Shown: positions 6,429-22,329, numbered from the stretch's first letter. The stretch: DNA of 64,000 bases from a virus (IMGVR_UViG_3300023202_000102:2700-66699), one strand, 5' to 3'. The notes: generated by a model from the sequence alone, not told the origin. Numbers and translations: made by a program.

Positions 6429-9110
6429 TTAGTCATCAACCATAGTGATAAGGGTTAGCTCTATTTGTACAAAGTATCTTGGCTGATCTGCTGTTCCAGC
6501 AGATCCGATTTGAACCCTTGGAGCAGCAGGAGAGTCGCCATCATTTGTTGCAACAAAGGTTAATGATCCGGCTGATGCTGCAAGAAGTTCGTCATCAATC
6601 CTATCAGAGGTGCTAGAATATCCATTAGAATCTCCTCCCCATGTCCAGGAGGCAACCCATTTAGATACATCGTATGACGATCCGTCAGCTCTTTGAACAG
6701 ATACAGTTACTGCTGCCATGAGCTTGGCATCATCGCTTCCAATTGGGGTTACACCACCAATTACAAAAGGAAGATCATAGTTAACTGCATCTTCATTATT
6801 GTTTTCCAAAACCACAAACAATGTCTCAGTGCCAACCTGGGCCGTTGTGGATGGAACATAATTATCAACATAACCATCAGACTCAAATGCAACTACATTG
6901 TCATTACCAGACTGATCTGTGAAAACCATCTTCTCATCATCACGGACCCAGAGTGTTCCCTCGTCTCCAGCTCCAGATGATGGATCGTATGGTGTTGTTG
7001 ATTGTTCAGAGAAAACCATTCCGGTTGGGTCTATTAGACCACCAACCGTAAGTTTGTTTGTTATCTCAAGGCTACCATTTACAAGAACAATACCATCTGT
7101 TCCTGATGTTGACGCTCCTGGATTAAGTTCAATATTACCAGAGTCACCACCATTTGTATCACCTGTTGATAATACAATAGATCCAGAGTTGGAGCTTGCT
7201 GCAGCTCTTGAGTTATCTCCGGTTGTAACAGAGAAACCTCCGGTTACAGTTGCGTCTGTGTCATCCGAGTCTCCAGATGTAAAGGTAAACCCTCCAGAAT
7301 CTCCTCCCTGTGCATCTCCAGTTGTTACATCAAAACCACCAGAGCCGCCTGTGTTTCCCGCTCCGGAAGTAAAAGAGAAACCACCAGACGTACCGCTACC
7401 ACCGGCACCAGTTACAACATCAAAAGAACCAGATCCTACGCTGTCACCAGACCCTGTTGTAAGAGTAATAGAACCAGAACCTCCAGAGTTTCCTGCTCCG
7501 GTAGTGACCGATACAGATCCTGAAGCTCCGCTTTGACCTGCGCCAGTAAGAATATCAACATCGCCCGAGCCGTTGGCTGGAGAACCTCCCGTTAAAGTAA
7601 TTGTTGTTGGATTGCCACCGCCGCCGGTATTGTTTGTTCTAAGAACAACACTTCCAGAATCAGAGCCTCCGTCTATCTGAAGGGCTTCAAGCAATACCTG
7701 CCCACCAGTTCCGGAAACTCCATTGGCTGATGTTCTAAGTATGATATCACCACCTTCATTACCAGAAGCATCTGTTTGAATTCTAATATTACCGCCAGCG
7801 GCTGAGCCAACACTAGGCGTTGCTGTTCCCGTTGTATAGTTACGAATTAGAATTTCATCACCAGGGCCGCCCTGTGATTGAGCTTGAATGGAAATTGGTC
7901 CGGAACCGCCACCATCTCCTGTGCTTTCAATAGTAATCGGAGCGCCGGGGCCGCCGCCGCCAGCATCAGTTCTAATAGTAATCTCACCTGAGATGCCCGA
8001 ACCAGTTGTGATTAGATCAATGGTACCAGAAGTTCCTCCGGTTGATGTTGTGGTTAATGAAATGTCTCCAGAGTTACCACCGGTTGTGGTACTAAAGTTA
8101 AAGTTACCACCATTACCACCTGGATTTGTGTTGATAAAGGATACATCGCCACCTCCAGTACCAGAACCATCTAGAGTTACTGTGAAGTTTCCAGGAGATC
8201 CAGAGCCGTTGTTTGAATCAAATACAAAATCACCACCTGTGGTGCCAGATCCGGTGAGCGTAACGTTAAGGTTTCCAGATGGCCCACCACCATTTGTGGA
8301 CTTTAAGTTTAAGTTACCACCAGCTGGCGCTCCTCCAGAGTAAGAGAAGATATCAATATCTCCCGATGGACCACCATTTGCACTAGAGAATAGGCTTACA
8401 TTACCAGCGGTTGAAGAGCTGATAGATGCGACAACTACATCACCAGATGGTGCAGCCGTACACTCGGAGGAAAGCTTTACCTGTCCAGAGGTGTTAGATG
8501 TTGAGAACGATCCGTAATAACCATCTCCAGATCTACCATTAGTAGACTCTGCTCTAACGGTTAGGGTTCCACCAAATCCAGAGTTTCCACTACCTGTTGT
8601 GATAGAGACATCACCAGAGTCTCCTGTTCCAACACTGGACCCTGTGCTAACAATAAAATCTCCACCATTATTGGTTCCAGTACCTGTTGTAAGAAATAAA
8701 TTACCAGAACTTCCCGCTCCATTATCTTTGGTTCTAATGGTTACCGCATCTGTTGCAAGTTCGCCAGTAATAGTATCGCCCGTTGACAGTTCTATACTTG
8801 TTCCTCCGGTAACATTTCCAAGACTTAAGGTCTCTGCCAGGTCTTCGTTGCCACCTGTACCTCCAACACCCGGTCCACCGATTACAAAATCAGTAGCAGT
8901 ACGGTCAGTATAAACTAAGTAACCATCATCTCTGGTCCATACCAACCCTTCTGTTCCTGAGGCTGATGGATCGTAAGGCGCAGAACCTTGCTCATTCATT
9001 GCGTTACCCGCAACGTTAGTCATGTTTGCACCAGAGGCATTTACACTGCCACCGTTGTCCTTATCGAGGATTGTAATTGGACCTAGTTGTTCTTCAATAG
9101 GGCGTACCAT
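6429..9110 (-). CDS. Glycine-rich repeat fiber protein (paralog), start placed at internal ATG 9110
   Basis: ORF 6429..9143. The ATG at 9110 (GGAGA Shine-Dalgarno) gives MVRPIEEQLGPITILDKDNGG, matching the conserved N-terminus of paralogs and avoiding overlap with the gene ending at 9121. Contains two copies of the 'PYDPS..G.EG.LWVRDD' module. Confidence 0.6.
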   Translation of the reverse strand: MVRPIEEQLGPITILDKDNGGSVNASGANMTNVAGNAMNEQGSAPYDPSASGTEGLVWTRDDGYLVYTDRTATDFVIGGPGVGGTGGNEDLAETLSLGNVTGGTSIELSTGDTITGELATDAVTIRTKDNGAGSSGNLFLTTGTGTNNGGDFIVSTGSSVGTGDSGDVSITTGSGNSGFGGTLTVRAESTNGRSGDGYYGSFSTSNTSGQVKLSSECTAAPSGDVVVASISSSTAGNVSLFSSANGGPSGDIDIFSYSGGAPAGGNLNLKSTNGGGPSGNLNVTLTGSGTTGGDFVFDSNNGSGSPGNFTVTLDGSGTGGGDVSFINTNPGGNGGNFNFSTTTGGNSGDISLTTTSTGGTSGTIDLITTGSGISGEITIRTDAGGGGPGAPITIESTGDGGGSGPISIQAQSQGGPGDEILIRNYTTGTATPSVGSAAGGNIRIQTDASGNEGGDIILRTSANGVSGTGGQVLLEALQIDGGSDSGSVVLRTNNTGGGGNPTTITLTGGSPANGSGDVDILTGAGQSGASGSVSVTTGAGNSGGSGSITLTTGSGDSVGSGSFDVVTGAGGSGTSGGFSFTSGAGNTGGSGGFDVTTGDAQGGDSGGFTFTSGDSDDTDATVTGGFSVTTGDNSRAAASSNSGSIVLSTGDTNGGDSGNIELNPGASTSGTDGIVLVNGSLEITNKLTVGGLIDPTGMVFSEQSTTPYDPSSGAGDEGTLWVRDDEKMVFTDQSGNDNVVAFESDGYVDNYVPSTTAQVGTETLFVVLENNNEDAVNYDLPFVIGGVTPIGSDDAKLMAAVTVSVQRADGSSYDVSKWVASWTWGGDSNGYSSTSDRIDDELLAASAGSLTFVATNDGDSPAAPRVQIGSAGTADQPRYFVQIELTLITMVDD

Positions 9111-9120
9111 AGTTCTCCGC

Positions 9121-12100
9121 TTATGCGTTATCCTCAGTTTCAATAGAGGCAGTGATCACAGTATTGGTTGTTGCTGTGCCTGTGTTGTTTGTAAATGTAA
9201 GAGTGATAACGTCTGATGCTTCTGATGCTACCAATGTATAGTTAGTATCATTGAAATCTAACACTGCATTGTCTGCGTGAATTGTGGTTCCATCTCCGGA
9301 ATCATCTCTGTGTACGAGCACGATTCCTCTATAGAAATCTCTGACGTTACCAGTGGATGTGTGTGTCTTAACTTTTACGTTGTAAGTGACAGTGTCTCCA
9401 TCTGCTACTGTTGGTAATGCGAGCGTTAGGGTTCCACTTGATGCGGAGACGGCTCCAGAGTTTACTTGTGTGGATGATAGTTGATTGATCTCTCCGGAAA
9501 GACCGTGAGCTTGTATTGCGCCATCAGCTCCAGAAGATGCTGTACCTGGAATTAAATCAATATCACCAGCGTCTGAAGATCCTGCGGCTGTTCCTGTTTG
9601 TATGGTAATTCCACCAGATCCAGAACCTCCGGTATTGTTCCCTGTTGCTATGGTAATTTCACCAGTATCATCAGCTGAAGCAGTTCCTGTTGTTAGGGAT
9701 ATGTATCCAGACAATGCTCCCTGACCAACGCCAGTTGTAACTTCAAAGTTACCGGAACCTAAATCACCACCGGGTCCTGTTGTAAATGTAACATCACCAG
9801 AGCCTCCAAAGGTTCCTCCGGCACCGGTTACAACATCAAAACCTCCGGCTCCTCTTGGTCCAATACCCTGGCCTGTTTCGAAGTAAAATCCTCCAGAGCC
9901 TCCACCGGATGTTCCAAGGCCTGTTGTAAGTGTAAACCCTCCAGAGTACCCATCATTACCAGAGTGATCGCCGGTTGAGAATGTTACATCTCCAGAATCA
10001 TATCCATCTGCTGAAACATCACCAGATGTAAATGAAAAGCCTCCAGAAGACATAGATCCACCAGTGCCTGTAACAAAACCAACCCCTCCTGAGCCTCCAC
10101 TATTTCCTGCTCCAGAAGTAAATGAGAATCCGCCCGACTCTCCACCATTACCATCTCCTGATGTTAATGTGAACCCTCCAGATCCAAGAGTAGAGCCTGC
10201 TCCAGTTGTAAATGTAAATGCACCTGAACCACCAGAGTTACCATGACCAGTAGTAAGTGATATTGAACCGGAGTCTCCTCCTGTTTGACCATTACCAGTT
10301 ACAACTGAGAAGTCACCCCCTCCACCATAACCATCGAAAGATGCGCCCTCTCCAGTAGTAATGGTAATGTCTCCACCGCCGCCCATTGTTCCAGAATCAA
10401 GGGTAGCTCCACGTCCTGATGTGATTTCTATATTTCCTGGAGAACCATAGATACCATCTCCAGAATAAATAAATACTGATCCGGATCCTCCTCCGTCTGT
10501 TCCACCATCTCCGGTAAACAAACTTAGATCACCAGACAAACCTCCATTACCGGCTCCAGAAGATAATGATACATCGCCAGAGCCAGAATCAGCACCAGAT
10601 CCAGAACCAATAGTGACAGCACCAGATAGCCCTAAAGGTCCACCACCTCCTGATTCAAGTATTACATCTCCACCTGGTCCACCTGAGTTTGCAGATCCAG
10701 ATCTCAAAGTTAAAGAGCCAGCGGTTCCCAAGAAGTTTCCGCTATTACCAGCAGATATTGAAACGCTTCCCGGACCAGAGTTTACAGATCCAGAGCTTGC
10801 TGCATTGACTGTTACCGAGCCGCCTGTTCCAGTTCCCTGTGCTTGTCCTGCAAAAAGCTGTAAGGATCCTCCATCTCCAGAGGTAGCACCACCTTGGCCG
10901 CCATTCCAAATGATGCCTCCACCATCTCCCGTTACACCTCCAGCTCCAGAGTTAAAAGTGTAACCTCCTCCATTTCCAGAGCCATCACCGCTACCTGGTT
11001 GGAAAATAAGATCGTTTCCAGATCCGCCACCAGTTCCATCTGGTGTTCTAAAGTTTGTCCCTCCAATCATATAAACATTGGAGTTCATATTGATTTGACC
11101 ATTGGAGCCTGGACCTGTTCCAGCAGTAAGCTCAATACTTCCACCATCAGACGAACCAGAGCCATTACCAGCGGTTACGTTAACAGCACCACCGTTACCA
11201 TTTCCTCCAGGGTTGGCTCCTGCTGTAATGTTTACATCACCACCTACCGCGACATTTCCAGAGTCACCAGCTGTAAGGGTTACATCACCACCTCTAACCG
11301 TTCCTGACGATCCGTCTCCCGCTGTAAGGGTTATGTCTCCCGCGTCAAAGTTAGATGATGCTCCGACCGCTACGCTGAAACCACCTGATGGTCCGCCATT
11401 TCCAAGCCCAGTAACAAAAGATACAGCCCCAGATCCATTTGCATTACCATTACCGGTAGTGAAGGTCATTGAACCTGATGCGCCTGCGCCTGGTCCCGAA
11501 CCGGTAGTTACAGAAAAATCACCACCATCACCAGAGGTACCCCCTCCAAGGCCAGTTGTAATTTCTACGTTGCCACCATTGCCAGTTCCGCCTGTCGCGG
11601 CGGACCTACCAGAGTTAATGAACACACCACCACCAACATCACTGGCTGCGCCATCTCCAGCCGTAGCATTGATTGAACCGCCTTCACCTGATGTTGTAGC
11701 AGTGCCAGGCGTTATGTTTACAGAGCCAGCATTACCTCCGGTATTGCCACCAGCAAAAAGATTTAATGCTCCTCCTGTTGTTGCGTCAACCTGAATTGAT
11801 ATTGTGGATCCAACAATAGGAATGCCGCCAACATCATTTCCAATGGCTAGGGTTTCCGCGAGAGTTTCTCCACCACCCGAACCACCACCAATACCATTCA
11901 AATCAATTGTATTGTCCGCACCACCTTGATCGGTGAACATGAGGTAGCCATCATCGCGAACCCAAATTAATCCCTCTGTTCCGGTAACAGAAGGATCATA
12001 AGGGGCCGATGCCTGTTCGGAGAATACTAAACCTGGAGGATCGATGAGGCCATTTACTGTTAGTTTTCCGGTAATTAATAGGTCATCATCAATGGTTACA

Positions 12101-12612
12101 TACCCATCAGGAGATGAAATTACAGACCCAAGGGTAAGAAGAATGTCCTCACCATCTGTAGAGTTTCCAGTTTGCAGTGTCTGAAATAAATCCTGAGATG
12201 GTACAATGGTGGCCGCACCATCAATGTCAGCTAGGTACCAAAACTCTACATCATCTGATGTAAGAAGCGTTGGTGGATATGTTCCAATGTAAGTTACGGA
12301 GTTTCCAGACTGAGTATAGTCTACTCCTTCGGCTAGCTTGATTCCGTTCAGGAACATCTGAACATACCCATCGGCAACCGGAACCGATGACAATGTAAAG
12401 TTTACCTGTCCGTTAAATGTGACTGGAACTATCTCTTGTTGCTGACCAACTGAGACGTTCAAAGCATCTACATAAGCTTTTGTTGCCGCATCCTGCGGGT
12501 CAATTGGGTCTGTAAGGTTGACAATTCTGGCTGTAAATGCATCAACAGTAGATGCTCCATCTTTTGCCAACAGCGTAATTTGCTGTAGGAATTTTTCGCT
12601 AACACGAACCAT
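9121..12612 (-). CDS. Glycine-rich repeat fiber protein (1163 aa, paralog)
   Basis: N-terminus MVRVSEKFLQQITLLAKDGAS; module 'LIDPPGLVFSEQASAPYDPSVTGTEGLIWVRDDGYLMFTDQ'; long GGFSFTSGAGNSGGSGG-type cassettes shared with the 6429 gene. Confidence 0.6.
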   Translation of the reverse strand: MVRVSEKFLQQITLLAKDGASTVDAFTARIVNLTDPIDPQDAATKAYVDALNVSVGQQQEIVPVTFNGQVNFTLSSVPVADGYVQMFLNGIKLAEGVDYTQSGNSVTYIGTYPPTLLTSDDVEFWYLADIDGAATIVPSQDLFQTLQTGNSTDGEDILLTLGSVISSPDGYVTIDDDLLITGKLTVNGLIDPPGLVFSEQASAPYDPSVTGTEGLIWVRDDGYLMFTDQGGADNTIDLNGIGGGSGGGETLAETLAIGNDVGGIPIVGSTISIQVDATTGGALNLFAGGNTGGNAGSVNITPGTATTSGEGGSINATAGDGAASDVGGGVFINSGRSAATGGTGNGGNVEITTGLGGGTSGDGGDFSVTTGSGPGAGASGSMTFTTGNGNANGSGAVSFVTGLGNGGPSGGFSVAVGASSNFDAGDITLTAGDGSSGTVRGGDVTLTAGDSGNVAVGGDVNITAGANPGGNGNGGAVNVTAGNGSGSSDGGSIELTAGTGPGSNGQINMNSNVYMIGGTNFRTPDGTGGGSGNDLIFQPGSGDGSGNGGGYTFNSGAGGVTGDGGGIIWNGGQGGATSGDGGSLQLFAGQAQGTGTGGSVTVNAASSGSVNSGPGSVSISAGNSGNFLGTAGSLTLRSGSANSGGPGGDVILESGGGGPLGLSGAVTIGSGSGADSGSGDVSLSSGAGNGGLSGDLSLFTGDGGTDGGGSGSVFIYSGDGIYGSPGNIEITSGRGATLDSGTMGGGGDITITTGEGASFDGYGGGGDFSVVTGNGQTGGDSGSISLTTGHGNSGGSGAFTFTTGAGSTLGSGGFTLTSGDGNGGESGGFSFTSGAGNSGGSGGVGFVTGTGGSMSSGGFSFTSGDVSADGYDSGDVTFSTGDHSGNDGYSGGFTLTTGLGTSGGGSGGFYFETGQGIGPRGAGGFDVVTGAGGTFGGSGDVTFTTGPGGDLGSGNFEVTTGVGQGALSGYISLTTGTASADDTGEITIATGNNTGGSGSGGITIQTGTAAGSSDAGDIDLIPGTASSGADGAIQAHGLSGEINQLSSTQVNSGAVSASSGTLTLALPTVADGDTVTYNVKVKTHTSTGNVRDFYRGIVLVHRDDSGDGTTIHADNAVLDFNDTNYTLVASEASDVITLTFTNNTGTATTNTVITASIETEDNA

Positions 12613-12844
12613 TTATGCTCCGATTTTTGCAGTTCTGCGGGTCCGTGATGATGCAGAGATATGCCCGTGCTAAAGAAACACAGCTTAAAAACCAAATGCT
12701 TTTGACGATCTGTGTTATTTTGGTTTGCAAACTCCCAGAAAACAAAGAGTTCATGTCCAAACTCTTTGAAAAATAAAAAGCGGGGCACTCTCAAGCTCAT
12801 AGAACTTTTACGGAAAATATCCTGCTCGTCCGTGCAGAAAAATC

Positions 12845-12872
12845 TTGACGTACCGTTTGCCATGAGTAGGGT
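12845..12872 (+). promoter_or_regulatory. Sigma70-like promoter TTGACG-16-TAGGGT upstream of the tRNA
   Basis: TCTTGACG at 12843-12850, 16 nt spacer, TAGGGT at 12867-72; same TCTTGAC(A/G) -35 family seen at 23129, 41670 and 49907. Confidence 0.3.
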
Positions 12873-12998
12873 TCTGGGCTGTAGTCAGTTCTTTTACTGA
12901 AGCACCAGGGATGGAGTGCTGGGGGTAAGGTGTTTTCACACCTATGCGTACATGTACTCTGCTGTAGGTACGGATTTAGGTGCAGACTAAATACTCAT

Positions 12999-13071
12999 GG
13001 GCCGATAGCACAACGGTCAGTGCGCCGGTCTCATAAACCGGTGGTTCTCAGTTCAAATCTGAGTCGGCCCA
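12999..13071 (+). tRNA. tRNA with anticodon CAT, elongator type, probably tRNA-Ile2 (lysidine substrate) rather than tRNA-Met; no encoded CCA
   Basis: Canonical cloverleaf: acceptor GGGCCGA/TCGGCCC, D-stem GCAC/GTGC, anticodon stem CCGGT/ACCGG with loop CTCATAA, T-arm CTCAG-TTCAAAT-CTGAG, discriminator A. G1-C72 is paired, so not an initiator. C4-G69 and C5-G68 match the TilS identity elements. Confidence 0.9.
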
Positions 13072-13084
13072 CTTGGAGGAAAAG

Positions 13085-13387
13085 ATGGAGTTGATAGTTG
13101 TTTCAAAAGAAGAACTGACACGGTTTGGGTGTCCCCACTGTGGTGGAGCAACAGAGGATGACTTTCTATCCTTTGGTTCTTGCTCTATCATTTGCTGTGA
13201 TGCTTGTGGACATCAGTGTGCAACTGTCAAGAACTCATGTGATGAGTTGGTATCTGTTCGTTCTGGTACTGACATTCAGAATTTGATTGGTCAGCACCCG
13301 TACAAGCGGCAGAATGATCGCATGATTGCTGCCCCTCTATTTGTTATCCCCAAATATTTCCCTTGCGCTTTTCGGCCGAAAGCGTAG
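13085..13387 (+). CDS. Small cysteine-rich hypothetical protein (Zn-binding?)
   Basis: ATG at 13085 with GGAGGA Shine-Dalgarno; MELIVVSKEELTRFGCPHCGG...CCDACGHQC multiple CxxC pairs. Confidence 0.4.
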   Translation: MELIVVSKEELTRFGCPHCGGATEDDFLSFGSCSIICCDACGHQCATVKNSCDELVSVRSGTDIQNLIGQHPYKRQNDRMIAAPLFVIPKYFPCAFRPKA

Positions 13388-13476
13388 GGTACTGAGCGGT
13401 ATGGCCAAGGACTGCCCCTCTCCTCACGGGCCCTTCGTACAGGTTCGTGGGGAGAATCTATTAAAGGAAATAAAAC

Positions 13477-13857
13477 ATGAGCGAAGTTACCAAAGAACAG
13501 GTTGTTGATTATCTTTCCAACCTTCCAGTCATTCAGATTTCAGAGCTTGTCAAAGAGCTTGAAGAGAAGTGGGGAGTGTCTGCCGCTCCTGTGATTCAGG
13601 GTGGTGTTGGGCCCGGACCTACTGATGAAGGTCCATCTGATGAAAAGACTGAGTTCGATGTTGTTCTGACTTCGTTTGGTTCTTCTAAGATGCCTATCAT
13701 TAAAGAGGTTCGTGCTCTCACTGGTCTTGGTTTGAAAGAAGCCAAGGAAAAGGTTGAGAGTGTTCCTTCAGTTCTCAAGGAAGGTATCTCCAAAGAGGAA
13801 GCCGAAGAGATCAAGGGCAAGATTGTCACAGCCGGTGGAGAGGTAGAGATCAAGTGA
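13477..13857 (+). CDS. rplL: Ribosomal protein bL12 (L7/L12)
   Basis: Near-collinear with bacterial L7/L12: N-terminal dimerisation helix, hinge '[18 protein letters not shown]', C-terminal domain '[40 protein letters not shown]...LKEG(I)[17 protein letters not shown]'. Confidence 0.88.
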
Positions 13858-14186
13858 ACCCCTCTCGTCGTGCATTGATTTCTATTCTTCATTCGAGAAA
13901 AACATCTCAGGTCATTCACGGCGAGAACCTTCTCACAACAGAGAAGGCTATAGAAGATGCTGCGCGGGATGCTCTTGATGAGTTTTCAGATCAGATAGAA
14001 GACGTTAGTCATGAGCAGTTAATTTCAATTTGCCAAGGGCTGTTTGTTCGAAGCATTGCAATGCTAGCTGTAACTTCTGAAGAAGACCCAGAACGTGGTG
14101 AGATCATTAATGAACTCACCAAAGATATCTGTTCAAAAGTTCTTGATGAAGAAGAGAGTGTTCCGCACCTACGTTTGGTAAGGTAG
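13854..14186 (+). CDS. Hypothetical protein (acidic; possibly a sigma-associated N-terminal region)
   Basis: GTG start overlapping the rplL stop; 110 aa ORF ending immediately at the sigma-factor start. Confidence 0.35.
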
Positions 14187-14810
14187 ATGGAATCACAGAT
14201 AGAAATATTCAATAAATACAAGAGGCTAGCATACAAGATAGCAAATCAGTTCTCTTATATTTGGCCTCATTACAAAGACGAAATAGAATCCGCTGCGATG
14301 TTTGGTCTTTGGGAGGCCGCTAAGAAAACAGAGTGTGATAATCCAATCAGCCTTTACTCTGCGATTATCAAAAATCATATCTTATATGTCTCAACTAAGT
14401 TTGATCCTATTTCAAAATGGTATAAAAGGAAAATCGCAGATGGAGAGATGGACGAGATAAGTTTTGTTTCTACAGACTCTCATTCTCAGTCAGATGATAG
14501 CTCTGGTTTTGAAAGTAAACTTTTTACAGAGATTGACTCAGCAATTGGACACTCCGAGACCATAGAAGATCAGCTCATTCAAAAAGAAATTGAACTAGAG
14601 CGTAGTAAGATTGTTCGCAGTGCAATCAAACAGCTCCCTCAAAAACAAAGGTTCATTGTTAGGTCTATCTTTTTTAAAGGCAAGAGTGGTAATGAGCTTG
14701 CCAAAGAATGGAACTGCTCTGGTGAAAATGTTCTAAGGCAAAAAAGAAACGCATTAAAAACAATGAGCCAATCAAACTCACTAAAGAAACTAAATACCAA
14801 ACTCAACTAG
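14187..14810 (+). CDS. Sigma-70 family RNA polymerase sigma factor (small, regions 2 and 4)
   Basis: Region 2 'IESAAMFGLWEAAKKTECDNPISLYSAIIKNHI' (compare DLIQEGNIGLMKAVEKFDP..FSTYA.WWI) and region 4 HTH 'LPQKQRFIVRSIFFKGKSGNELAKEWNCSGENVLRQKRNALKTM'. Confidence 0.7.
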   Translation: MESQIEIFNKYKRLAYKIANQFSYIWPHYKDEIESAAMFGLWEAAKKTECDNPISLYSAIIKNHILYVSTKFDPISKWYKRKIADGEMDEISFVSTDSHSQSDDSSGFESKLFTEIDSAIGHSETIEDQLIQKEIELERSKIVRSAIKQLPQKQRFIVRSIFFKGKSGNELAKEWNCSGENVLRQKRNALKTMSQSNSLKKLNTKLN

Positions 14811-14817
14811 AGGTAAG

Positions 14818-15552
14818 ATGCCCAAGCTAAATCAAATTGTAGCCATCGAAGATGGTACCAAAAAGCGTGACCATAAAGAGATCTCTGCCATCTACAAGTC
14901 ACTTCAGAAGCCTGACTTGTTTAATGGGTTCTTCAGAACCTATACCCCCATCAATGATGAGGATATTGTTTATCCGGCCGAGCAAAAGAATGTTCAGCAA
15001 AAATGCCATGAGCTTCTTGAGCTTGTCAAGTCTAACAAAATTGAGCTTTGGAATGTCATTGCCACTAAGGATTACGCCAACTGTCAGGCTAAGGCTGATA
15101 TTGTTGTAGATGGTGTCGCTCTTGCGAGCGACGTTCCTGTAACTCATCTTCTCTTCTTAGAGAAGCAGTTGAATGATCTGAAAGATTTTATACTAAAGCT
15201 TCCGGTCTTGGACCCTACAAAGACATGGGGCTTTGATTCAAACAAAGACCTCTACGTCTCACAGTTTGTAGAGGAAAGACTCAAGACTAAGAAGATTCAC
15301 AAATCTGTAATCAAGTTCGAGCCTTCTGAGCATACTCCTGGCGATGCGGATGTTGTTACAGTAGATGAGCCAGAAGGTCGTTGGAAACAGGAAGATGTAT
15401 CAGCAGCCTTCCCTGCTAACAAGATTCGTGAGGTAATGACACGAGTCACTAAGCTTCAAGAGGCAGTAAAGTTTGCTCGTGAAGAGGCGAACTCTCTTGA
15501 AGTAGAGAAGCAAAAGATTGCCGAAGGAATGCTTGAATACATCTTTGGATAA
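14818..15552 (+). CDS. Hypothetical protein (244 aa)
   Basis: Good ORF with AGAGG Shine-Dalgarno; follows the sigma gene; no recognisable motif. Confidence 0.5.
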   Translation: MPKLNQIVAIEDGTKKRDHKEISAIYKSLQKPDLFNGFFRTYTPINDEDIVYPAEQKNVQQKCHELLELVKSNKIELWNVIATKDYANCQAKADIVVDGVALASDVPVTHLLFLEKQLNDLKDFILKLPVLDPTKTWGFDSNKDLYVSQFVEERLKTKKIHKSVIKFEPSEHTPGDADVVTVDEPEGRWKQEDVSAAFPANKIREVMTRVTKLQEAVKFAREEANSLEVEKQKIAEGMLEYIFG

Positions 15553-15558
15553 GATTTT

Positions 15559-15606
15559 CATCGGAGAGTAATCTCCGGTGAGGAACCGGCCCCCGATGTC
15601 TGGGGG
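15559..15606 (+). other. Cluster of nested hairpins directly after a stop codon (terminator-like or small RNA 5' element)
   Basis: CATCGG[GGAGA-GTAA-TCTCC][CCGG-TGAGGAA-CCGG]CCGATG, then CCCCC-GATGTCT-GGGGG; no clear U-tract. Confidence 0.3.
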
Positions 15607-15677
15607 TCTTAGCAGACAAACTAAACCTCAAACTAAAACTGAGACTAACAAGACGCCACTACTGGGGCTTTGCCCTT

Positions 15678-15728
15678 GCAGGTTCGAGTCCTGCCCCTAT
15701 CACCACCGAAAGGTTATCTATGATAGGG
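15678..15728 (+). ncRNA. tRNA-like element: T-arm + acceptor 3' strand + CCA, then an 18-nt loop and the complementary 5' strand (permuted/tRNA-like arrangement)
   Basis: GCAGG-TTCGAGT-CCTGC (G53, TTCGA, C61 consensus), then CCCTATC-A-CCA, loop, GATAGGG. No canonical 5' half upstream. Lies in a 445-bp ORF-free region. Confidence 0.3.
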
Positions 15729-15836
15729 TACCCAAACAGGCACAGGGAGTTGTGGTACTCAATCAAGTTATTCTGCTAATCTCGTAAGGACACCGTATGT
15801 AAACTAATCAAGCTGTGTGTACAATTTTGAGAGGAT

Positions 15837-15928
15837 GTCCGTTCGATTCGGATCCTGTGGGCAAGGGACATGAGCAAGTTGCTCTCTCCGAGAGGTCAAC
15901 TAAACCACTGTTGATGTCTCTTGCCCAC
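15837..15928 (+). ncRNA. Second T-arm-like hairpin plus a 15-bp long-range helix (structured RNA candidate)
   Basis: GTCCG-TTCGATT-CGGAT at 15837-53; GTGGGCAAGGGACAT (15857-71) pairs with ATGTCTCTTGCCCAC (15914-28) with one G.U. Confidence 0.3.
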
Positions 15929-15998
15929 GGGTAGCTTAAGGGAAAAGCGTCTCATTTAAAAATGATGCATACATTAAACGTCGTAGTTTATATTACGG

Positions 15999-16652
15999 AT
16001 GGGCAGTGGAGTAGATAGGCTATCAACATCTCCGCTGCCCTTTCTATATTTGGAGCAAATACGACCAATGAAAGAATTCATAGAGCTTGTTCTCATATCT
16101 CTAGAGCGTGATAACCTCATCAAATTAGGTAGCATTCTCTTCCTTCTCAGTTTCTGTCACTTTGTTGTTGACTGGGGTTTTCAGAGCCATAAGGAAGCAA
16201 TGAACAAAGCCACGAATCATAACATAAGGTTCGTGCATTGTTGCGTGTACACCATTGGAATGCTACCGTTGGTAGCTCTTCTTATTGGAGATCACACAAG
16301 GATAGGGCAGGCTGTCCTTACATGCGCAAGCGTCATGTGGATTAGCCACTTTCTCATTGATACATATATCCCAGTGTATCTGTGGGTCAAGTACATTAGA
16401 AGACCACCAAGCAAAGATGTAACAGAACTTGAGTACTTCAAAGATTTCGCATCAACTCCAATAGGCCTCTTCCTGGTAATAGCAATGGACCAGGTGTTTC
16501 ATTTACTATTTCTAATCCCAGTTGCGCTAACAATTATGTGGCCAACCTTTTATTATTATTGGGGATTGGTCTCTGGTTTCTTTGTTTTATTACTGTGTTG
16601 GTCGGTAGTGTTTGGAGTGAAAAAACTATATGCCATTCAAGAGAACAGATAA
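15999..16652 (+). CDS. Integral membrane protein (multi-pass), hypothetical
   Basis: 217 aa with about 5 hydrophobic helices (e.g. ILFLLSFCHFVV, LPLVALLIGD, IGLFLVIAMDQVFHLLFLIPVALTIMW, GLVSGFFVLLLCWSVVF). Confidence 0.5.
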   Translation: MGSGVDRLSTSPLPFLYLEQIRPMKEFIELVLISLERDNLIKLGSILFLLSFCHFVVDWGFQSHKEAMNKATNHNIRFVHCCVYTIGMLPLVALLIGDHTRIGQAVLTCASVMWISHFLIDTYIPVYLWVKYIRRPPSKDVTELEYFKDFASTPIGLFLVIAMDQVFHLLFLIPVALTIMWPTFYYYWGLVSGFFVLLLCWSVVFGVKKLYAIQENR

Positions 16653-17466
16653 AGGAAAAGTTCAATACCCAAATGGAATTTCCTCAGAAGATAGAAGGTT
16701 CTGTAGAAAAGTGTTCAACGAAATGGGTGAATACATCGATGTAGACGGCGATCCTAATGCACAAAAAGAACTTATCATTGCATGCTCTGGTGGTTTGGAC
16801 AGCACTGTGCTTGCGCATGTGTTTGCGCAAATGTGTATTATCTCTGGTCTAAAAAAGAATCGTGTTAAACTTGTGTATGTTGACCATGGGCTCCGAAATT
16901 TGGTTGAGTTACACCGGGATGCAACACACGTTATCAACCTTGCCGAAATGCTTGGATTCAATGGAGAGGTAATTAAGGTCACCCTTAATGAGGGTAATGT
17001 TCAAGAACAAGCTCGCATTGCTAGGTATGATGCCCTGGCAGCAATGGCTGTCCAAACAAGTTCGGGAGATTATGCCGATGTTTTACTGGCTCACCATGCC
17101 AATGACGTTGCAGAAACAAAGCTGTTTCAATTCCTTACAGGTCGAAAGGTTACCGGGATTGAATCAAATCTTTCTTGGTATATCAAATCTGAGCACGAAA
17201 AAGATCCCAACCCATTGGTGCCAAAGTGTGAATACACCATTGATTTTTTCAGACCCTTTCTAAATCTTACACGTTCTGATTTAGAAAGATACGCTAGGAT
17301 TTGGAACCTACAATGGGTGGAAGATTCTACCAATGGTACTAACAAGTACACACGAAACCGTATCCGTCATGAACTAATTCCATGGATTGAAAAAAATGTA
17401 AACCCAGGTGTTATCAACACACTAGTGGGGCTTCATGAAAAAGAAAGAGAAGCTGACGATACCTGA
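16630..17466 (+). CDS. tilS: tRNA(Ile)-lysidine synthetase TilS (PP-loop ATPase), short form
   Basis: PP-loop 'ACSGGLDSTVLAHVF'; TilS-specific 'AHHANDVAETKLFQFLTGRKVTGIE' (compare aHHxDDQaET..lRl.RG). Confidence 0.78.
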   Translation: MPFKRTDKGKVQYPNGISSEDRRFCRKVFNEMGEYIDVDGDPNAQKELIIACSGGLDSTVLAHVFAQMCIISGLKKNRVKLVYVDHGLRNLVELHRDATHVINLAEMLGFNGEVIKVTLNEGNVQEQARIARYDALAAMAVQTSSGDYADVLLAHHANDVAETKLFQFLTGRKVTGIESNLSWYIKSEHEKDPNPLVPKCEYTIDFFRPFLNLTRSDLERYARIWNLQWVEDSTNGTNKYTRNRIRHELIPWIEKNVNPGVINTLVGLHEKEREADDT

Positions 17467-17576
17467 GCTAACCCAAAAAATGCTATCTCTTCCGGTAAAA
17501 GAGAGGGGCTGGTATGCTCATCAAATTCGCATCTTACAATCTAAACAGATAAAAGATAGTAAGAAAAAGGCATAGT

Positions 17577-17984
17577 TTGGTATCATGTCGTGGAGGAACC
17601 GACATGCTCAATGTACTAGTAGCCGCACTCATGGAAGTTGTTGACACCAGCAACGATCTAAAAACAGGTAACGTCGAAGCTGGAGAACTTACAGCTGCGA
17701 AGAAGCGTTTCTTTTCTGCGCTTAACGAGTTTGTTGATTACCGAGTTAAAGTTGCCATGGACCAACGCAGAAGGAACATCAGCCAGGAAAGAATAGCTGT
17801 TGCTGACTCTATCAATGCTGCTGTAAAGTCCACTGCGAGTACAATCAAAAGTATCTCTGCTCTTAACTCGGCTCCCGCTCCGTTTCCACCAGCAGACGCC
17901 ACTAAAGAAGAGATTGAAATTTGGTTTGCGGCTTATAAAGATTGGTATGAAAACAAGAGAAGGGAAGGCATTACAATAGAATAA
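17577..17984 (+). CDS. Hypothetical protein
   Basis: 135 aa ORF; the true start may be the ATG at about 17604 (MLNVLVAAL). Confidence 0.4.
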   Translation: MVSCRGGTDMLNVLVAALMEVVDTSNDLKTGNVEAGELTAAKKRFFSALNEFVDYRVKVAMDQRRRNISQERIAVADSINAAVKSTASTIKSISALNSAPAPFPPADATKEEIEIWFAAYKDWYENKRREGITIE

Positions 17985-18013
17985 TGCATATAGCAAAGTT
18001 CTAGCATATCAAT

Positions 18014-18859
18014 ATGACTGATTGGTATGCACATGAACAGTTCCTCATTGATGAGGTTAAGAAGCTTGAAGAGGCCGAAGCGGCTTACGCTTTGCGCGAG
18101 GCCTGGAAGAAAATTTATGGACAGTATCCAAGTGATAAATCACTGGCGGTTCTTTGGGCAAAGTCTGCCCTTGAAACTGGTCGTTGGAAGATTATTCATT
18201 GTTACAACTTTGGTAACATTAAAAAGCTAGGAACTCATCGCGGTAATGATGACGGACATTACTTTACAATGTACAGGTGCTCTGAGATTCTAAATGGTAA
18301 AGAGGTTTGGTTTGATCCTCCGCATTACCAAACACATTTCAGAGCCTACAAGACAGTTGAAGCTGGTGCTGAAGATTACATTAGGTTTGTATCTCAAAAG
18401 AAAAGATACCTCAAGGCATGGCAAGAAGTCATTAACGGTGACCCACGGGCATACTCTCATGAGTTGAAAAAGGCGGGGTATTATACTGCGTCTGAGTCAT
18501 TGTATACCGCTGGTGTTGTTAGATTGTTTGATTCATTTATGAAAAGAAAGGATGAGCTTTTGTCTTGGGAACCAGAAGATAAAATTGATACCATTCCATC
18601 TCCGGCCCCTGAACCAGCCAATCCTATTGAAGAGGAACCTGTCAAAGAAGATCCAGAGGAAAAGATTGATACCAACATTGACAATGGGCCTCCACCATCA
18701 AAAGACTTTGATAATGACAATGAGATCACTGATGTTGATGCCGGGGTCGAGACGAGTGCTTCTAAAGAAATTGGCAAAAGTGCTAAGCCTATGTTCCTGA
18801 TGGCTGTGATTGTTGCTGCCATTGCTTGGGTTTCGCAATTCTTTCAAAGCTGCCAATAA
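18014..18859 (+). CDS. GH73-family N-acetylglucosaminidase (peptidoglycan hydrolase / endolysin-like) with C-terminal TM anchor
   Basis: 'LAVLWAKSALETGRW...NFGNIK' and 'LKKAGYYTASESLYTAGVVRLFD' resemble FlgJ/GH73 motifs (AQAALESGWG..N.FGIK; AGYATDP.Y); C-terminal 'MFLMAVIVAAIAWVSQFF'. Confidence 0.6.
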   Translation: MTDWYAHEQFLIDEVKKLEEAEAAYALREAWKKIYGQYPSDKSLAVLWAKSALETGRWKIIHCYNFGNIKKLGTHRGNDDGHYFTMYRCSEILNGKEVWFDPPHYQTHFRAYKTVEAGAEDYIRFVSQKKRYLKAWQEVINGDPRAYSHELKKAGYYTASESLYTAGVVRLFDSFMKRKDELLSWEPEDKIDTIPSPAPEPANPIEEEPVKEDPEEKIDTNIDNGPPPSKDFDNDNEITDVDAGVETSASKEIGKSAKPMFLMAVIVAAIAWVSQFFQSCQ

Positions 18860-18923
18860 ACCTTTACAGCTGCACCAATACGGGGTAGGCTGATGAGGCT
18901 CTGGCATAACCGGAGAAGATCGA

Positions 18924-19517
18924 ATGAAGTCAGCCACCTACGGCAAAAATAAGCAGGAAGGAAAACCCCCTGCGGTGATCCTTACGAACCCCAAGTACTC
19001 GTACAATGTGGGTGGCGCACAGCGTGCGTGCTCTTGTTGGGGTGTTTCTCAGCTGTGGTGGACGGGCAATCGTGTACGTTTTGAAGCAACTGAATCTGGA
19101 AAAGGCAACAAGAAAAGACTTCCAAGAGAAGAGCGAATGAAAGGATACATGGATGTTGAACTGCGACAGTTCGATTATCCATTTGATCAGTTCGACAAAA
19201 GCGTAACAACTGTTGCTATTGAACTGATACCTGGAGCCGAACCTCTACCAACATTCGAACACCCCGAAAACGCCGTGTATGTTTTCGGGCCAGAAGATGG
19301 TTCAATTGATTCTGTTACCAGAAAGCATTGCCATCGTTTTGTTTCCATTCCTGCTCATCACTGTATGAATCTTTCTATGGCTGTTGGGCTTGTTCTGTAT
19401 GATAGGTTCATTAAGATGAACCAAGATGTTAGACTTGAGGATATCCTCAAGGAGAATCGATATGATTTCACTGACCATAGGTTGGCAGCGAAAGAAATGG
19501 GATTAGTTTCAAGATGA
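18924..19517 (+). CDS. SpoU/TrmH-family RNA 2'-O-ribose methyltransferase
   Basis: SpoU motifs 'ILTNPKYSYNVGGAQRA', 'VYVFGPEDGSIDSV', 'VSIPAHHCMNLSMAVGLVLYD'. Confidence 0.6.
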   Translation: MKSATYGKNKQEGKPPAVILTNPKYSYNVGGAQRACSCWGVSQLWWTGNRVRFEATESGKGNKKRLPREERMKGYMDVELRQFDYPFDQFDKSVTTVAIELIPGAEPLPTFEHPENAVYVFGPEDGSIDSVTRKHCHRFVSIPAHHCMNLSMAVGLVLYDRFIKMNQDVRLEDILKENRYDFTDHRLAAKEMGLVSR

Positions 19518-19705
19518 AGATTACTAGTATTAAGATTGACAAGACCAAGCTGGTTAACTCTGCTAAGTCCGTTGGCAATGCAGCTTGGAAAGTTGCCAAG
19601 TCTGAAGAGGCTCTTGGTGCTTTGAAAATCATTGCAGCCACAGTTGCTTTGATTCATGCCGTTGAAGAGCTTAGGCAAACAAGAAATAAAATTGGCTTCA
19701 AGTAA
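19514..19705 (+). CDS. Small hypothetical protein (63 aa)
   Basis: Overlaps the neighbouring start and stop (ATGA); helical. Confidence 0.35.
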   Translation: MKITSIKIDKTKLVNSAKSVGNAAWKVAKSEEALGALKIIAATVALIHAVEELRQTRNKIGFK

Positions 19706-20192
19706 TGAAGAAGATTTATCTTGCTGGTCCTACGTATTCAGGTCAGACTCAAAAGAGATAGGTAAGTTTCTCAAAGGGCTTTGTGAGGCTTTTGGTTTTG
19801 AAGGTGTGTATCCATTAGACAACGAGATATCAAACATCGAATCGAAACCAAGGCAAGCTCTTGGTAAAGAGATTGCTGAAGCAAATGTCGAACTCATTCA
19901 TGGGTGTGATTATGTTTTAGCAAACCTTGAACCTTTTCGAGGGCCAAGCGCAGACTGTGGAACAGTCTGGGAGTGTGCCTATGCTAAAGGTTTGGGAAAG
20001 ATGGTTGCTGGATACTCAAAGACAAAATCATTACCATACAAAGACAAAGTCCTCAACGTACTTCCTCATGATGGAATGATGGTAGAAGACTTTCACGCTT
20101 GGGATAACATCATGTTAGTGCATGGTATTGATTTTATGTGTAGTGACCCTCGTGTTGGTTTACAATGGCTTAGAGAACAGGACAAGAAATGA
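19705..20192 (+). pseudogene. Nucleoside 2-deoxyribosyltransferase-like (PF05014) gene with an apparent -1 frameshift after codon about 17
   Basis: ATG at 19705 gives the family N-terminus MKKIYLAGPTYSGQTQKR then TAG. The remainder (…EIGKFLKGLCEAFGFEGVYPLDNE…DCGTVWECAYAKGLGKMVAGY) is in the -1 frame (track ORF 19656..20192). The junction is in an A-run 'ACTCAAAAGAGATAG'. Confidence 0.55.
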
Positions 20193-20782
20193 TTCAAGAC
20201 ATATACCCTCCGGTTGTTGTTGAAACAACAATGAAAGGTGAGAAACATTGGGATATCTTTAGCCGTTTGATGAGGGACCGCATCATCATTCTTGGTGATG
20301 TAATAGATGATGATGTTGCTAACATCATTATTGCGCAGATGTTGTACCTTCAAAACGAGGATTCGGAGAAGGACATCGATCTTTACATCAACTCTCCCGG
20401 TGGAATCGTTACATCAGGTATGGCCATACTTGATACGATGAATTACATCAAGTGTAATGTGAAGACTATCTGTATGGGTCAAGCCTCATCAATGGGCGCT
20501 CTGCTTCTTGCCGCAGGAACCAAAGGCAAAAGAAAAGCATTACCCAATGCACGAGTAATGATCCACCAACCGCTTGGGGGTGTGCGAGGACAGGCCTCAG
20601 ACATTAAGATCCAAGCCGACGAGATAGATAAGATCAAGAATAAAATCACAGATATTCTGGTAAAAGCTACCGGACAAAATCGTGACAAGGTCTACCAAGA
20701 TATAGACCGTGACTTCTATCTATCAGCCGAAGAGGCCAAAGAGTATGGCCTTATTGATGAAGTAATTTCTTCTGGTGACTAA
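20189..20782 (+). CDS. clpP: ATP-dependent Clp protease proteolytic subunit ClpP (copy 1)
   Basis: Collinear with ClpP; catalytic Ser in '[11 protein letters not shown]', His in '[10 protein letters not shown]', Asp in '[12 protein letters not shown]'. Confidence 0.9.
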
Positions 20783-20809
20783 CCAGAAAGCAACCCAAGA
20801 GATATAAAA

Positions 20810-21928
20810 ATGCTGGAGCTAAGTAACAACAGACTAAATTTTTCATTCCCTGACACTCATGGTGAAGCCAATGTTGGAGTAGACTTCCAGCGAACTCTGC
20901 GCATCCCTGATGACGACAAGCAGTATAGTCTCCCTCCTGGACTGGGAAGTTTTCCAACCCGAAAGGTAGATGACCTTGACGAGGAGAAGACCCCAAAAGA
21001 GTGGAGGGAGCATGGTGGTGTTGTTATTCCAATGTTTCAATCCGAAGCAATGTGGATCAACTTTCACCCTAACCACACATGGAAGCGTGGCTCGTCCTAT
21101 CCTTTTGCTATTAAGGTATCAACAGGAAAGGTGAGCGCTCTTACTGGAAACCCCTATGTCAAAGAGTTGAGTCCTGGTAACTATCTTGTTATCCCACAGC
21201 AGCCATGGCTTGATGGGTTCGTAGTTGATGAGGGTTTCATCCGTCAGTTCATAGCATCACCTCTCGGTTCTGGAGTGTCTGTTGAGCAACAGATGACTGG
21301 AGAAGATAAGGTGGGAGGTCTTCAGATTGAAGTCATTCCTATGAAGGCTGAGGTGTATGATAAGAAGTTCCCGAAACGAAAGATGAATGGAAACGTACTG
21401 CGCTCTCAGAGCATGTCAAAAGTTGGTGAGACTCTTGATGGAAACGAGTTGTATGCAACATCTGCAGGAGCAACCATGGATTTCATGGAACAGGGAACGG
21501 ATAGTGATCGAGAAGAGCTAACTAAAGGATCTCCTATTCAAGAGATGTCTCTCGCTGCTGGTGGTAAGATGAAGCAACAGGTATTCGATGACCCATTTGA
21601 CATCAATGATTGGGATATCGAAACCAGTGAGCGTTGCTTTGTCCATCTTGTTAACTCCATGACATGGGAGTACTTAACAGGGGAGAAGCCACCTTCTGTT
21701 CCTCTCACCGCCGCTGATTACAATCAGCGTGGGATGCCTTGGTTTGATTACTACTCGGAGTCTCCGACGGTAAAACCAACAGACAAGATGAAAGATCTCA
21801 AGAGCATGAAAGAGATGCCTGGCGGCGAACACATGCTTCCTGAGAACGAATCCCTTGAAGAGAAGAATGTCAAAGACCTTTCTCCGAAGAAAAAGAACCC
21901 AAAAGAAGTTCATGATGGTAAGTGGTAA
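20810..21928 (+). CDS. Hypothetical protein (372 aa)
   Basis: Clean ORF with AGATATAAAA ... ATG start; no motif recognised. Confidence 0.5.
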   Translation: MLELSNNRLNFSFPDTHGEANVGVDFQRTLRIPDDDKQYSLPPGLGSFPTRKVDDLDEEKTPKEWREHGGVVIPMFQSEAMWINFHPNHTWKRGSSYPFAIKVSTGKVSALTGNPYVKELSPGNYLVIPQQPWLDGFVVDEGFIRQFIASPLGSGVSVEQQMTGEDKVGGLQIEVIPMKAEVYDKKFPKRKMNGNVLRSQSMSKVGETLDGNELYATSAGATMDFMEQGTDSDREELTKGSPIQEMSLAAGGKMKQQVFDDPFDINDWDIETSERCFVHLVNSMTWEYLTGEKPPSVPLTAADYNQRGMPWFDYYSESPTVKPTDKMKDLKSMKEMPGGEHMLPENESLEEKNVKDLSPKKKNPKEVHDGKW

Positions 21929-22116
21929 TGTCTTGGATATCTGTTCATAAAGCTCTACCACCAAGCGGTGTCATTGTTGATACTAAAATAGATGATGCTT
22001 CTGGTCCCAGAAATGAACAGCCATTGAAAAGGCAGGGAAGGTTATACTTCCACCCAGATGGGTCAACGTATGTTTATTATGAGCCTACCCATTGGAAACT
22101 AAGGAATACAGAATGA
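21922..22116 (+). CDS. Small hypothetical protein
   Basis: 64 aa ORF overlapping the upstream stop. Confidence 0.3.
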   Translation: MVMSWISVHKALPPSGVIVDTKIDDASGPRNEQPLKRQGRLYFHPDGSTYVYYEPTHWKLRNTE

Positions 22117-22318: not shown

Positions 22319-22329
22319 ACCGATCAAAT

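Follow-up and report, generated by a model that had tools for sequence, protein, structure and literature searches.

The viral DNA stretch IMGVR_UViG_3300023202_000102:2700-66699 (64,000 nt; in the following, the window) contains a single tRNA gene, which ARAGORN locates at 12999..13072 (+) and which has the anticodon CAT, and, on the same strand and 3.56 kb from the end of the tRNA, an open reading frame (ORF; 16630..17466) coding for a 278-aa protein with similarity to the lysidine synthetase TilS. TilS is a textbook anticodon-modifying enzyme that needs extra domains, as tRNA-Met has the same anticodon as its substrate tRNA-Ile2. Here we present evidence that the tRNA is of the Ile2 type, that the ORF corresponds to the catalytic domain of TilS alone, and that the two genes likely form a phage-borne module for the decoding of AUA codons. 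The following features are relevant for the analysis:

12999..13072 (+): tRNA with anticodon CAT, predicted to be of the Ile2 type, i.e. lysidine-dependent and AUA-reading; presumed substrate of the encoded TilS (ARAGORN, Rfam, discriminator nucleotides, covariance models)
16630..17466 (+): minimal TilS consisting of the PP-loop catalytic N-terminal domain (NTD) only, with the C-terminal domains CTD1 and CTD2 absent (Pfam, NCBIfam, PDB, Foldseek, hhalign)
16630..16752 (+): N-terminal extension (MPFKRTDKGKVQYPNGISSEDRRFCRKVF...), ~40 aa, family-specific, basic and conserved (alignment, AlphaFold2 (AF2), hhalign)
16786..16803 (+): PP-loop SGGLDS, residues 53-58, for binding of the ATP α-phosphate and adenylation of C34 (translation, 'ACSGGLDST'; alignments)
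17089..17115 (+): TilS block HHANDVAET (translation, alignments)

The tRNA matches the Rfam tRNA model RF00005 (12999..13071; 71.9 bits, gathering score 29) and its sequence can be folded into a standard cloverleaf with the acceptor stem GGGCCGA/TCGGCCC (G1-C72, G2-C71, G3-C70, C4-G69, C5-G68, G6-C67, A7-U66), the D stem GCAC/GUGC (C11-G24, A12-U23), the anticodon stem CCGGU/ACCGG, the loop CUCAUAA and discriminator A73. CCA is not encoded at the 3' end, A73 being followed by CTT. The marks of an initiator are absent, i.e. there is neither a 1-72 mismatch nor A11-U24/G12-C23 nor a run of three G-C pairs at 29-31/39-41. In a classification of 1,070 CAT tRNAs by Silva et al. (2006; PMC1635315) G3/A3 or C70/U70 never occurred in tRNA-Met or fMet and thus mark tRNA-Ile(CAT), C4-G69 and C5-G68 were frequent in tRNA-Ile(CAT), and A11-U24/G12-C23 was a mark of initiators. 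The window tRNA exhibits all of these Ile features (G3-C70, C4-G69, C5-G68) and none of the initiator features, so that the initial annotation, which had described a non-initiator tRNA(CAT) with C4-G69 and C5-G68, agrees with the sequence itself as well as with ARAGORN and Rfam.

The isotype was further assessed with three small covariance models that were built for this analysis and from all of which the window tRNA was held out: R1, derived from nine Ile2-like tRNAs (E. coli ileX and tRNAs beside phage TilS genes), R3, derived from six Ile2-like tRNAs (E. coli ileX and tRNAs beside distant phage TilS genes, none of them from loci of the TilS family of the window), and R2, derived from nine elongator-Met-like tRNAs (E. 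coli metT and non-initiator C3-G70 CAT tRNAs from bacterial loci). The window tRNA scores 80.5 bits with R1 and 77.0 bits with R3, as compared to 54.5 bits with the Met-like model R2, and for each of the seven tRNAs associated with the TilS family the score with R3 exceeds that with R2, the margin being 6-22 bits. The previously claimed assignment to Ile2 rather than Met is thus backed by the discriminators of PMC1635315 as well as by the covariance models, and these data support a classification as Ile2-type tRNA(CAU), neither elongator Met nor initiator. A BLAST search of the tRNA against E. coli genomes gave no match; its matches in phages carry the label 'tRNA-Met', which stems from ARAGORN-style annotation and is thus uninformative. 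In a scan for sigma-70 promoters and terminators around the tRNA, promoters were not found above shuffled expectation.

In the ORF Pfam recognizes one domain only, PF01171 (136 bits, residues 48-248). The equivalog model of the TilS N-domain, TIGR02432 (lysidine_TilS_N), is matched with 141.2 bits (cutoff 93.6), while other PP-loop families stay below 20 bits, NcsA being next best with 18.8 bits. Sequence matches in the PDB are restricted to the TilS proteins from A. aeolicus, E. coli and G. kaustophilus, over their NTD. The AF2 model has a predicted local distance difference test score (pLDDT) of 91 and finds its best Foldseek matches in the TilS structures 1wy5, 1ni5, 2e89 and 3a2k, with TtuA and NcsA following after TilS at ~14% identity. 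Although identity to cellular TilS amounts to only 24-35%, the catalytic residues are preserved: S53, G55, D57 and S58 are invariant both in a 32-member family alignment and in cellular TilS, and H155, D159 and E162, invariant in the family, align with an invariant H, D and E of the cellular enzymes. Altogether, residues of the PP-loop and of the motifs ARxxRY, HxxDxxET, RP, WxEDxSN and YxRNxxR are invariant across the 32 members. The SGGxDS motif and the HHANDVAET block by which the initial annotation had recognized the gene are thus confirmed in the translation, and TIGR02432 supports the assignment.

The C-terminal tRNA-binding region is missing; its absence is one half of the condition that, together with failed complementation, that annotation had named as a refutation. 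Neither the CTD1 domain PF09179 (TilS substrate-binding) nor the C-terminal domain PF11734 has a Pfam match in the ORF, and the full-length TilS model NF007942 is failed by a wide margin (81 bits vs a cutoff of 606). In an hhalign comparison of the family with 17 cellular TilS proteins the alignment covers columns 17-228 of 444 (E = 5e-53), i.e. it ends at the start of the linker helix that leads to the C-terminal domains of TilS. Thus, as judged from sequence and model, the ORF is a homologue of the catalytic domain of TilS and has neither CTD1 nor CTD2. We also asked if TilS might be split, with the C-terminal part encoded by a 126-aa ORF further downstream (17604..17984). This was rejected, as its hhalign probability to the C-terminal domains of TilS is 0.1, its model is an all-α three-helix bundle, and in two related loci (L001, L041) it stays with a glucosaminidase gene, 4-5 kb from tilS. 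At the N-terminus the family has the extension listed above, with the consensus RTDxGKIxWPxGISxxDRRFCR in the family alignment and confident AF2 prediction (pLDDT 83-97 for residues 1-30), and the members also share the C-terminal end LIPWIExxxNPGxVKML. Nothing equivalent to the extension exists in the profile of cellular TilS, the alignment starting at family column 37; the extension is a candidate for an element that substitutes for the lost tRNA contacts.

The short TilS is not confined to the window. A word-indexed search yielded ~65 homologues of 235-278 aa with 36-54% identity, on contigs of up to 454 kb; after these, similarity falls off steeply to the level of cellular TilS. An exhaustive search gave ~30 clusters at 50% identity, all from large uncultured contigs and with lengths of 228-270 aa, except for one outlier of 347 aa; these clusters match from profile position 1-2, and the scores then drop to full-length enzymes that do not have the extension. 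The outlier, P0259, is the only family member with ~100 extra residues at the C-terminus, and this Asn/Lys/Ile-rich tail might stem from fusion with another ORF or constitute a new type of appended domain. Close family members were found neither in 185,579 GTDB species genomes (best 35% identity) nor among INPHARED isolated phages nor in PHROGs; a single-protein scan of viral contigs returned nothing, whereas an alignment-based scan did find relatives. More distant phage TilS-like genes (21-30% identity) are mostly ORFs of ~200 aa and also encode the NTD only. From these comparisons, the domain-only architecture is a trait of the family rather than a truncation.

Ten distinct family loci, i.e. 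the window (L034), L001-L004, L035 and L038-L041, were compared with regard to neighboring tRNAs. Within ±10 kb of tilS ARAGORN reports nine tRNAs, seven of which have the anticodon CAT; these share the strand of tilS and are located upstream of it, at distances between 10 nt and 8.8 kb. The other two are a tRNA(TAT), called by ARAGORN only, and a tRNA-Leu. In 8 of the 10 loci the sole tRNA in this range is of the AUA type, upstream and on the same strand, a count that includes the TAT call in L003. This tRNA-Ile(TAT) (L003, 9443..9514, ~490 nt upstream of the family tilS) was not relied on, as its D arm is aberrant and no Rfam tRNA match is obtained even at E <= 10; its acceptor stem is Ile-type (G3-C70, C4-G69, C5-G68) and, if real, it would represent a switch from CAU to UAU as in Mycoplasma mobile.

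The distant TilS-like genes show the same association. An Ile2-type tRNA-CAT is located 18-36 nt downstream of such a gene in L012/L013 and in L011 (L011b), and directly upstream of it in L025. The gene in L011 resides in an array of 40 tRNAs (7757..20126; counted also as 39 tRNAs plus a transfer-messenger RNA (tmRNA)), in which a G3-C70 CAT copy directly follows tilS and initiator-like and Met-like CAT tRNAs are found elsewhere. Large translation islands of this kind, with tmRNA genes, also enclose or adjoin the distant TilS-like genes of L012 (8097..8402) and L033 (5072..5431). In the isolated phage MIJ3 the gene for a 203-aa TilS and a tRNA cluster are 7-10 kb apart, and of the three CAT tRNAs in this cluster one has G3-C70. 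Altogether, 12 of 13 distinct phage tRNAs neighboring tilS have G3-C70. In 80 loci around cellular bacterial tilS 11 CAT tRNAs occur by chance, all with C3-G70 save one mis-registered initiator. The comparisons of these loci thus support an evolutionary link between tRNA and tilS.

An independent connection to AUA decoding comes from codon usage. The window has 44% GC, and AUA accounts for 17% of its Ile codons (10.7 per 1000 codons); related loci have 13-21 AUA per 1000 codons, rates that are at the upper end of the bacterial AUA range (PMC12514573). Nevertheless, none of the 17 Ile codons of the window tilS is AUA, and the deficit is found throughout the family:

tilS, ten family loci pooled: 7 AUA observed, 42-46 expected, 188 Ile codons
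Conserved 126-aa ORF (neighbor): 21 AUA observed, 16.5 expected, 70 Ile codons
Glucosaminidase (neighbor): 16 AUA observed, 17.1 expected, 76 Ile codons
SpoU (neighbor): 5 AUA observed, 6.8 expected, 32 Ile codons
tilS, 74 diverse bacterial loci: 397 AUA observed, 349 expected, 1847 Ile codons

The pooled binomial P for the deficit in family tilS is ~1e-12 to 1e-14, a value that overstates independence as the sequences are related, even if synonymous sites should be saturated at 36-54% protein identity. No codon is depleted more strongly than AUA in family tilS (observed/expected 0.15), whereas CUA and AGG are not depleted. No AUA depletion is observed for the three conserved neighbors or for the 74 cellular tilS genes (observed/expected 1.14). 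The distant phage TilS-like genes are AUA-depleted as well, including that of MIJ3 (2 of 15 Ile codons vs 9.1 expected). An outlier is a TilS-like gene in L015 (6908..7303), which has AUA at 21 of its 40 Ile codons in an AUA-poor contig of 32% GC; this is the reverse of the pattern in all other phage tilS genes, and the gene may represent an element of a different kind. In the window, the ECF sigma factor gene at 14187..14810 has AUA at 6 of 21 Ile codons, i.e. AUA avoidance does not extend over the whole gene block, and the DUF3307 gene at 15999..16652 has it at 7 of 18, as opposed to 0 of 17 in tilS.

Based on these findings we consider it likely that the window encodes an AUA-decoding module composed of its own tRNA-Ile2 and a minimal TilS that yields lysidine. 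The phage would transcribe its own tRNA-Ile2 precursor with the anticodon CAU; the tRNA stands at the head of a rightward gene block in which rplL, the sigma factor gene and others precede tilS, suggesting co-transcription. As CCA is not encoded, host enzymes would trim the tRNA and add CCA. By homology, the NTD-only TilS would then adenylate C34 with ATP and lysine would replace AMP, making lysidine the expected product. Lysidine would shift the tRNA from Met/AUG to Ile/AUA identity, and charging by the host isoleucyl-tRNA synthetase (IleRS) would finally supply AUA decoding for the phage genes.

How such an enzyme may select its tRNA is suggested by the loop. All TilS proteins described so far have at least one appended domain, i.e. 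CTD1 in type II and CTD1 plus CTD2 in type I; the acceptor stem is read by CTD2, and its deletion strongly lowers activity and relaxes discrimination in the B. cenocepacia enzyme (BcTilS; PMC11947777). Because CTD2 is absent here, C4-G69 and C5-G68 cannot serve the phage TilS in the known way. The acceptor pairs 4 and 5 also vary in the sister phages (A4-U69 in L035 and L038, G4-C69/U5-A68 in L040), which fits an enzyme without a domain that reads the acceptor stem. The initial annotation had regarded these two pairs as TilS identity elements; they are indeed present in the window tRNA, but this role is called into question both by the missing domain and by the lack of conservation. All Ile2-type tRNAs studied here have the loop CUCAUAA, and seven of nine elongator-Met-like tRNAs differ from it at positions 32 and/or 38, the positions at which TmcAL has been reported to separate Met from Ile2 tRNA. 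Thus, recognition probably occurs via the anticodon loop (C32...A38) rather than the acceptor stem, and the basic N-terminal extension may add further contacts to the tRNA.

The absence of AUA from tilS may be explained by a bootstrap, i.e. the enzyme that enables the reading of AUA must itself be translatable before this reading suffices. The module would then matter as the host decodes AUA poorly, and an AUA-free tilS mRNA would allow the enzyme to be made first. Read in this way, the AUA purge implies that AUA decoding by the host is limiting. TilS was described as very inefficient in high-GC, AUA-poor bacteria (PMC12514573), and low-GC viruses of high-GC hosts that also carry TilS are exemplified by MIJ3 (PMC6892783) and the chloroviruses (PMC7589089).

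Several observations weigh against this interpretation. There is no known active TilS without CTD1, and both activity and specificity of the NTD-only protein remain predicted, since all characterized TilS proteins have at least one appended domain and loss of CTD2 is harmful. L001 and L041 have no CAT tRNA within 10 kb of tilS. As to the host, whose AUA usage bears on the bootstrap, the sole hint is that the nearest L12 homologues with a name come from metagenome-assembled genomes (MAGs) of Myxococcota. As to the tRNA, the lead of the Ile2-like models over the Met-like model (22-26 bits) comes from training sets of only 6-9 sequences, whose labels, apart from those of E. coli, derive from sequence rules or genomic context. 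By plain distance the window tRNA is nearly equidistant to E. coli ileX, metT and metZ (30, 36 and 31 differences), whereas the same comparison is clear for the related tRNA of L002 (12 vs 27 differences). Finally, the window tRNA has G29-C41, whereas C29-G41, together with G30-C40, is invariant in the Ile2-like reference set, and we take C29-G41 to be an identity element of E. coli IleRS. Among the relatives L035 has A29-U41 and L038 has G29-C41.

Four other explanations have to be considered. First, the two genes might be functionally separate, i.e. the tRNA is matured by the full-length TilS of the host, and the short phage protein acts on host tRNA-Ile2 or on another RNA. C4-G69 and C5-G68 are determinants of E. 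coli-type TilS and could be read by a host enzyme (PMC11947777), T4-like and lambdoid phages have a tRNA-Ile(CAU) without any TilS (PMC1524935), and the domains with known binding to the body of the tRNA are missing from an NTD-only protein. However, the sister phages retain the pair of genes in spite of A4-U69 or G4-C69/U5-A68, so that acceptor-stem readout by the host is not conserved; moreover, close upstream linkage recurs in independent lineages and the purge of specifically AUA ties tilS to AUA decoding. We thus regard a functional separation as unlikely.

Second, the NTD-only enzyme might be unselective, modifying any CAU loop including that of host tRNA-Met, or adding an amine other than lysine, with reprogramming or shut-off of host translation as a result. 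The relaxed discrimination of BcTilS upon loss of CTD2 would be in line with this, the family-associated tRNAs share no conserved nucleotide outside the CUCAUAA loop, and TilS accepts 5-aminovaleramide in vitro at high concentration (PMC13602947). On the other hand, conversion of tRNA-Met would also hurt translation of the phage, as ATG is used at 24 per 1000 codons in the window, a dedicated Ile2-type tRNA is co-inherited, and all catalytic residues invariant in TilS are kept. Furthermore, specificity based on the loop alone is feasible, given the differences at 32/38 in the small sample of elongator tRNA-Met and the precedent of TmcAL. Taken together, an unselective enzyme seems quite improbable.

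Third, the tRNA might be an ordinary phage elongator tRNA-Met that is located near a PP-loop gene by coincidence. The label tRNA-Met is what ARAGORN and most phage annotations assign, being the commonest tRNA call in phages, and the near-flat plain distances to ileX, metT and metZ would allow it. This is very unlikely, as G3-C70 is reported to be absent from Met and fMet tRNAs (PMC1635315), the chance CAT tRNAs near cellular tilS are C3-G70 with the exception of the one mis-registered initiator, the Ile2-like models are clearly ahead, and the linkage is recurrent. Fourth, as TilS dimerizes through its NTD, the phage protein, being an NTD only, might form a heterodimer with host TilS and block it as a dominant-negative partner or borrow its C-terminal domains in trans, but this is scarcely credible, since inhibition would leave the AUA-rich genes of the phage starved, strict conservation of the catalytic residues would serve no purpose in a pure inhibitor, and the identity to cellular TilS is only 24-35%.

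Thus, we favor the AUA-decoding module over these alternatives. The module itself is real and represents a known system in a new architecture, its biochemistry being predicted from sequence. With that, the initial annotation is largely right, yet partly supported only, as three corrections are required: the enzyme consists of the NTD only, the system is not self-contained, and it is not rare. For AUA decoding independent of the host, as had been proposed, the tRNA, its TilS partner and the AUA signature are in place, but host IleRS, CCA addition and probably t6A37 would still be needed. Likewise, the idea that an enzyme carried together with its substrate tRNA is unusual does not hold, given the ~30 family clusters and the known TilS genes of MIJ3/PA5oct, RsoM2USA, pelagimyophages and chloroviruses. 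The add-on to translation is therefore real but only moderately novel, as the pairing recurs in many big phages.

The genes around the pair comprise further functions related to translation and RNA. Between tRNA and tilS lies a full-length homologue of ribosomal protein bL12 (L7/L12; 13477..13857 (+), TIGR00855, 144.7 bits); among the 120 best bL12 homologues listed, all four that are named come from Myxococcales/Polyangiaceae MAGs (63-67% identity), which hints weakly at a high-GC host from the Myxococcota. In a DNA search of the region against phages only fragments of rplL and of the tRNA were found. Directly after the tRNA a Cys-rich ORF of 100 aa (13085..13387 (+), CPHCGG...CCDACGHQC) has no Pfam match; a homologue with 44% identity is located between tRNA and tilS in L040. 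It is followed, downstream of rplL, by the gene for an extracytoplasmic function (ECF)-type sigma-70 family factor (14187..14810 (+), TIGR02937, 54 bits) and the gene for a DUF3307 membrane protein (15999..16652 (+)), the end of which overlaps the start of tilS by 23 nt.

Downstream of tilS a SpoU-family RNA 2'-O-methyltransferase is encoded (18924..19517 (+)), with TrmJ/YjtD as best subfamily, albeit below cutoff. It is usually found within a few kb of tilS, is 71-78% identical in L039 and L040, as compared to 46-49% for TilS, and may act on the same tRNA, possibly at position 32 or 34. Another tRNA-directed function in the same phage is represented by a Thg1-like protein (27133..27927 (+), PF04446, 55.9 bits) of the tRNA 3'-5' nucleotidyl-transferase/repair family. 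The rightward region 19656..37187 (+) contains a host-like set of genes, i.e. nucleoside 2-deoxyribosyltransferase, ClpP, NAD-dependent DNA ligase, a PcfJ-like protein, an M16 peptidase, an SPFH/Band 7 protein, an AAA ATPase and a 582-aa protein with a peptidoglycan transglycosylase domain. On the opposite strand lie five large leftward ORFs (320..12612 (-), 256-1163 aa), in which the AUA counts of the window reach their maximum; the largest encodes a Gly/Ser/Thr-rich repetitive protein of 1163 aa (9121..12612 (-)), one of the five has weak tail-related PHROG matches, and they presumably encode tail fibers.

We speculate that the short phage TilS represents a third, minimal class of lysidine synthetase, made up of the catalytic domain alone, choosing its tRNA via the loop and/or the N-terminal extension, provided with its own tRNA and bootstrapped in hosts that read AUA poorly; on the available evidence the case for and against such a class is evenly balanced. 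How type II TilS copes with one extra domain is an open question (PMC11947777), and a conserved family that has no extra domain, and mostly its own tRNA, offers a minimal system for asking what is sufficient for recognition. The tRNA and the short TilS could also serve as a compact orthogonal pair for AUA-codon engineering. More generally, large phages would supply not only a rare-codon tRNA but also the enzyme for its maturation, and a tilS gene free of AUA offers a simple mark, readable from the sequence, of a dependency in codon decoding, which may be searched for elsewhere.

Compared to the bacterial enzymes of type II (A. aeolicus, M. smegmatis) and type I (E. coli, G. kaustophilus, B. 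cenocepacia), the phage protein has the same PP-loop domain, invariant motifs and fold and presumably the same chemistry, i.e. ATP-dependent addition of lysine to C34 of tRNA-Ile2, but it lacks CTD1 and CTD2, has an N-terminal extension and is encoded by an AUA-purged gene. Its closest parallel among viruses is the putative TilS of the Pseudomonas jumbo phages MIJ3/PA5oct (PMC6892783), which is phage-encoded, restricted to the N-domain, AUA-depleted and near an Ile2-type tRNA-CAT, just like in the window; the MIJ3 protein differs in that it is only 24.5% identical to the window TilS, has no N-terminal extension and is accompanied by a cluster of 12 tRNAs instead of a single one. That report (2019) stated that TilS had 'not been reported in phages', drew no link to the tRNA and did not note the missing domains. 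L12 and TilS are both annotated in the pelagimyophage group PMP-A (PMC7029224), as in the window, the pelagimyophages having 33% GC as opposed to 44%, and TilS of Ralstonia phage RsoM2USA (PMC8504454), likewise reported at the level of annotation, comprises 349 aa, long enough for a C-terminal domain. T4-like phages (PMC1524935) carry a tRNA-Ile(CAU), as here, but rely on the TilS of the host; TilS occurs in 39 of 41 chloroviruses, the argument being that it helps these viruses to decode AUA in a high-GC host (PMC7589089), and a tilS-trnI(CAU) module was described for plastids (PMC13494906). In these three cases an AUA-reading tRNA or the enzyme is carried to match the AU-rich codon usage of the carrier. 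In the open-access literature we found no analysis of the missing C-terminal domains in phage TilS, of a systematic pairing with Ile2 tRNAs or of the AUA purge. Thus, the concept is familiar, as both phage tRNA-Ile(CAU) and phage TilS are known, and it is the minimal architecture of the enzyme that sets the module of the window apart from these systems.

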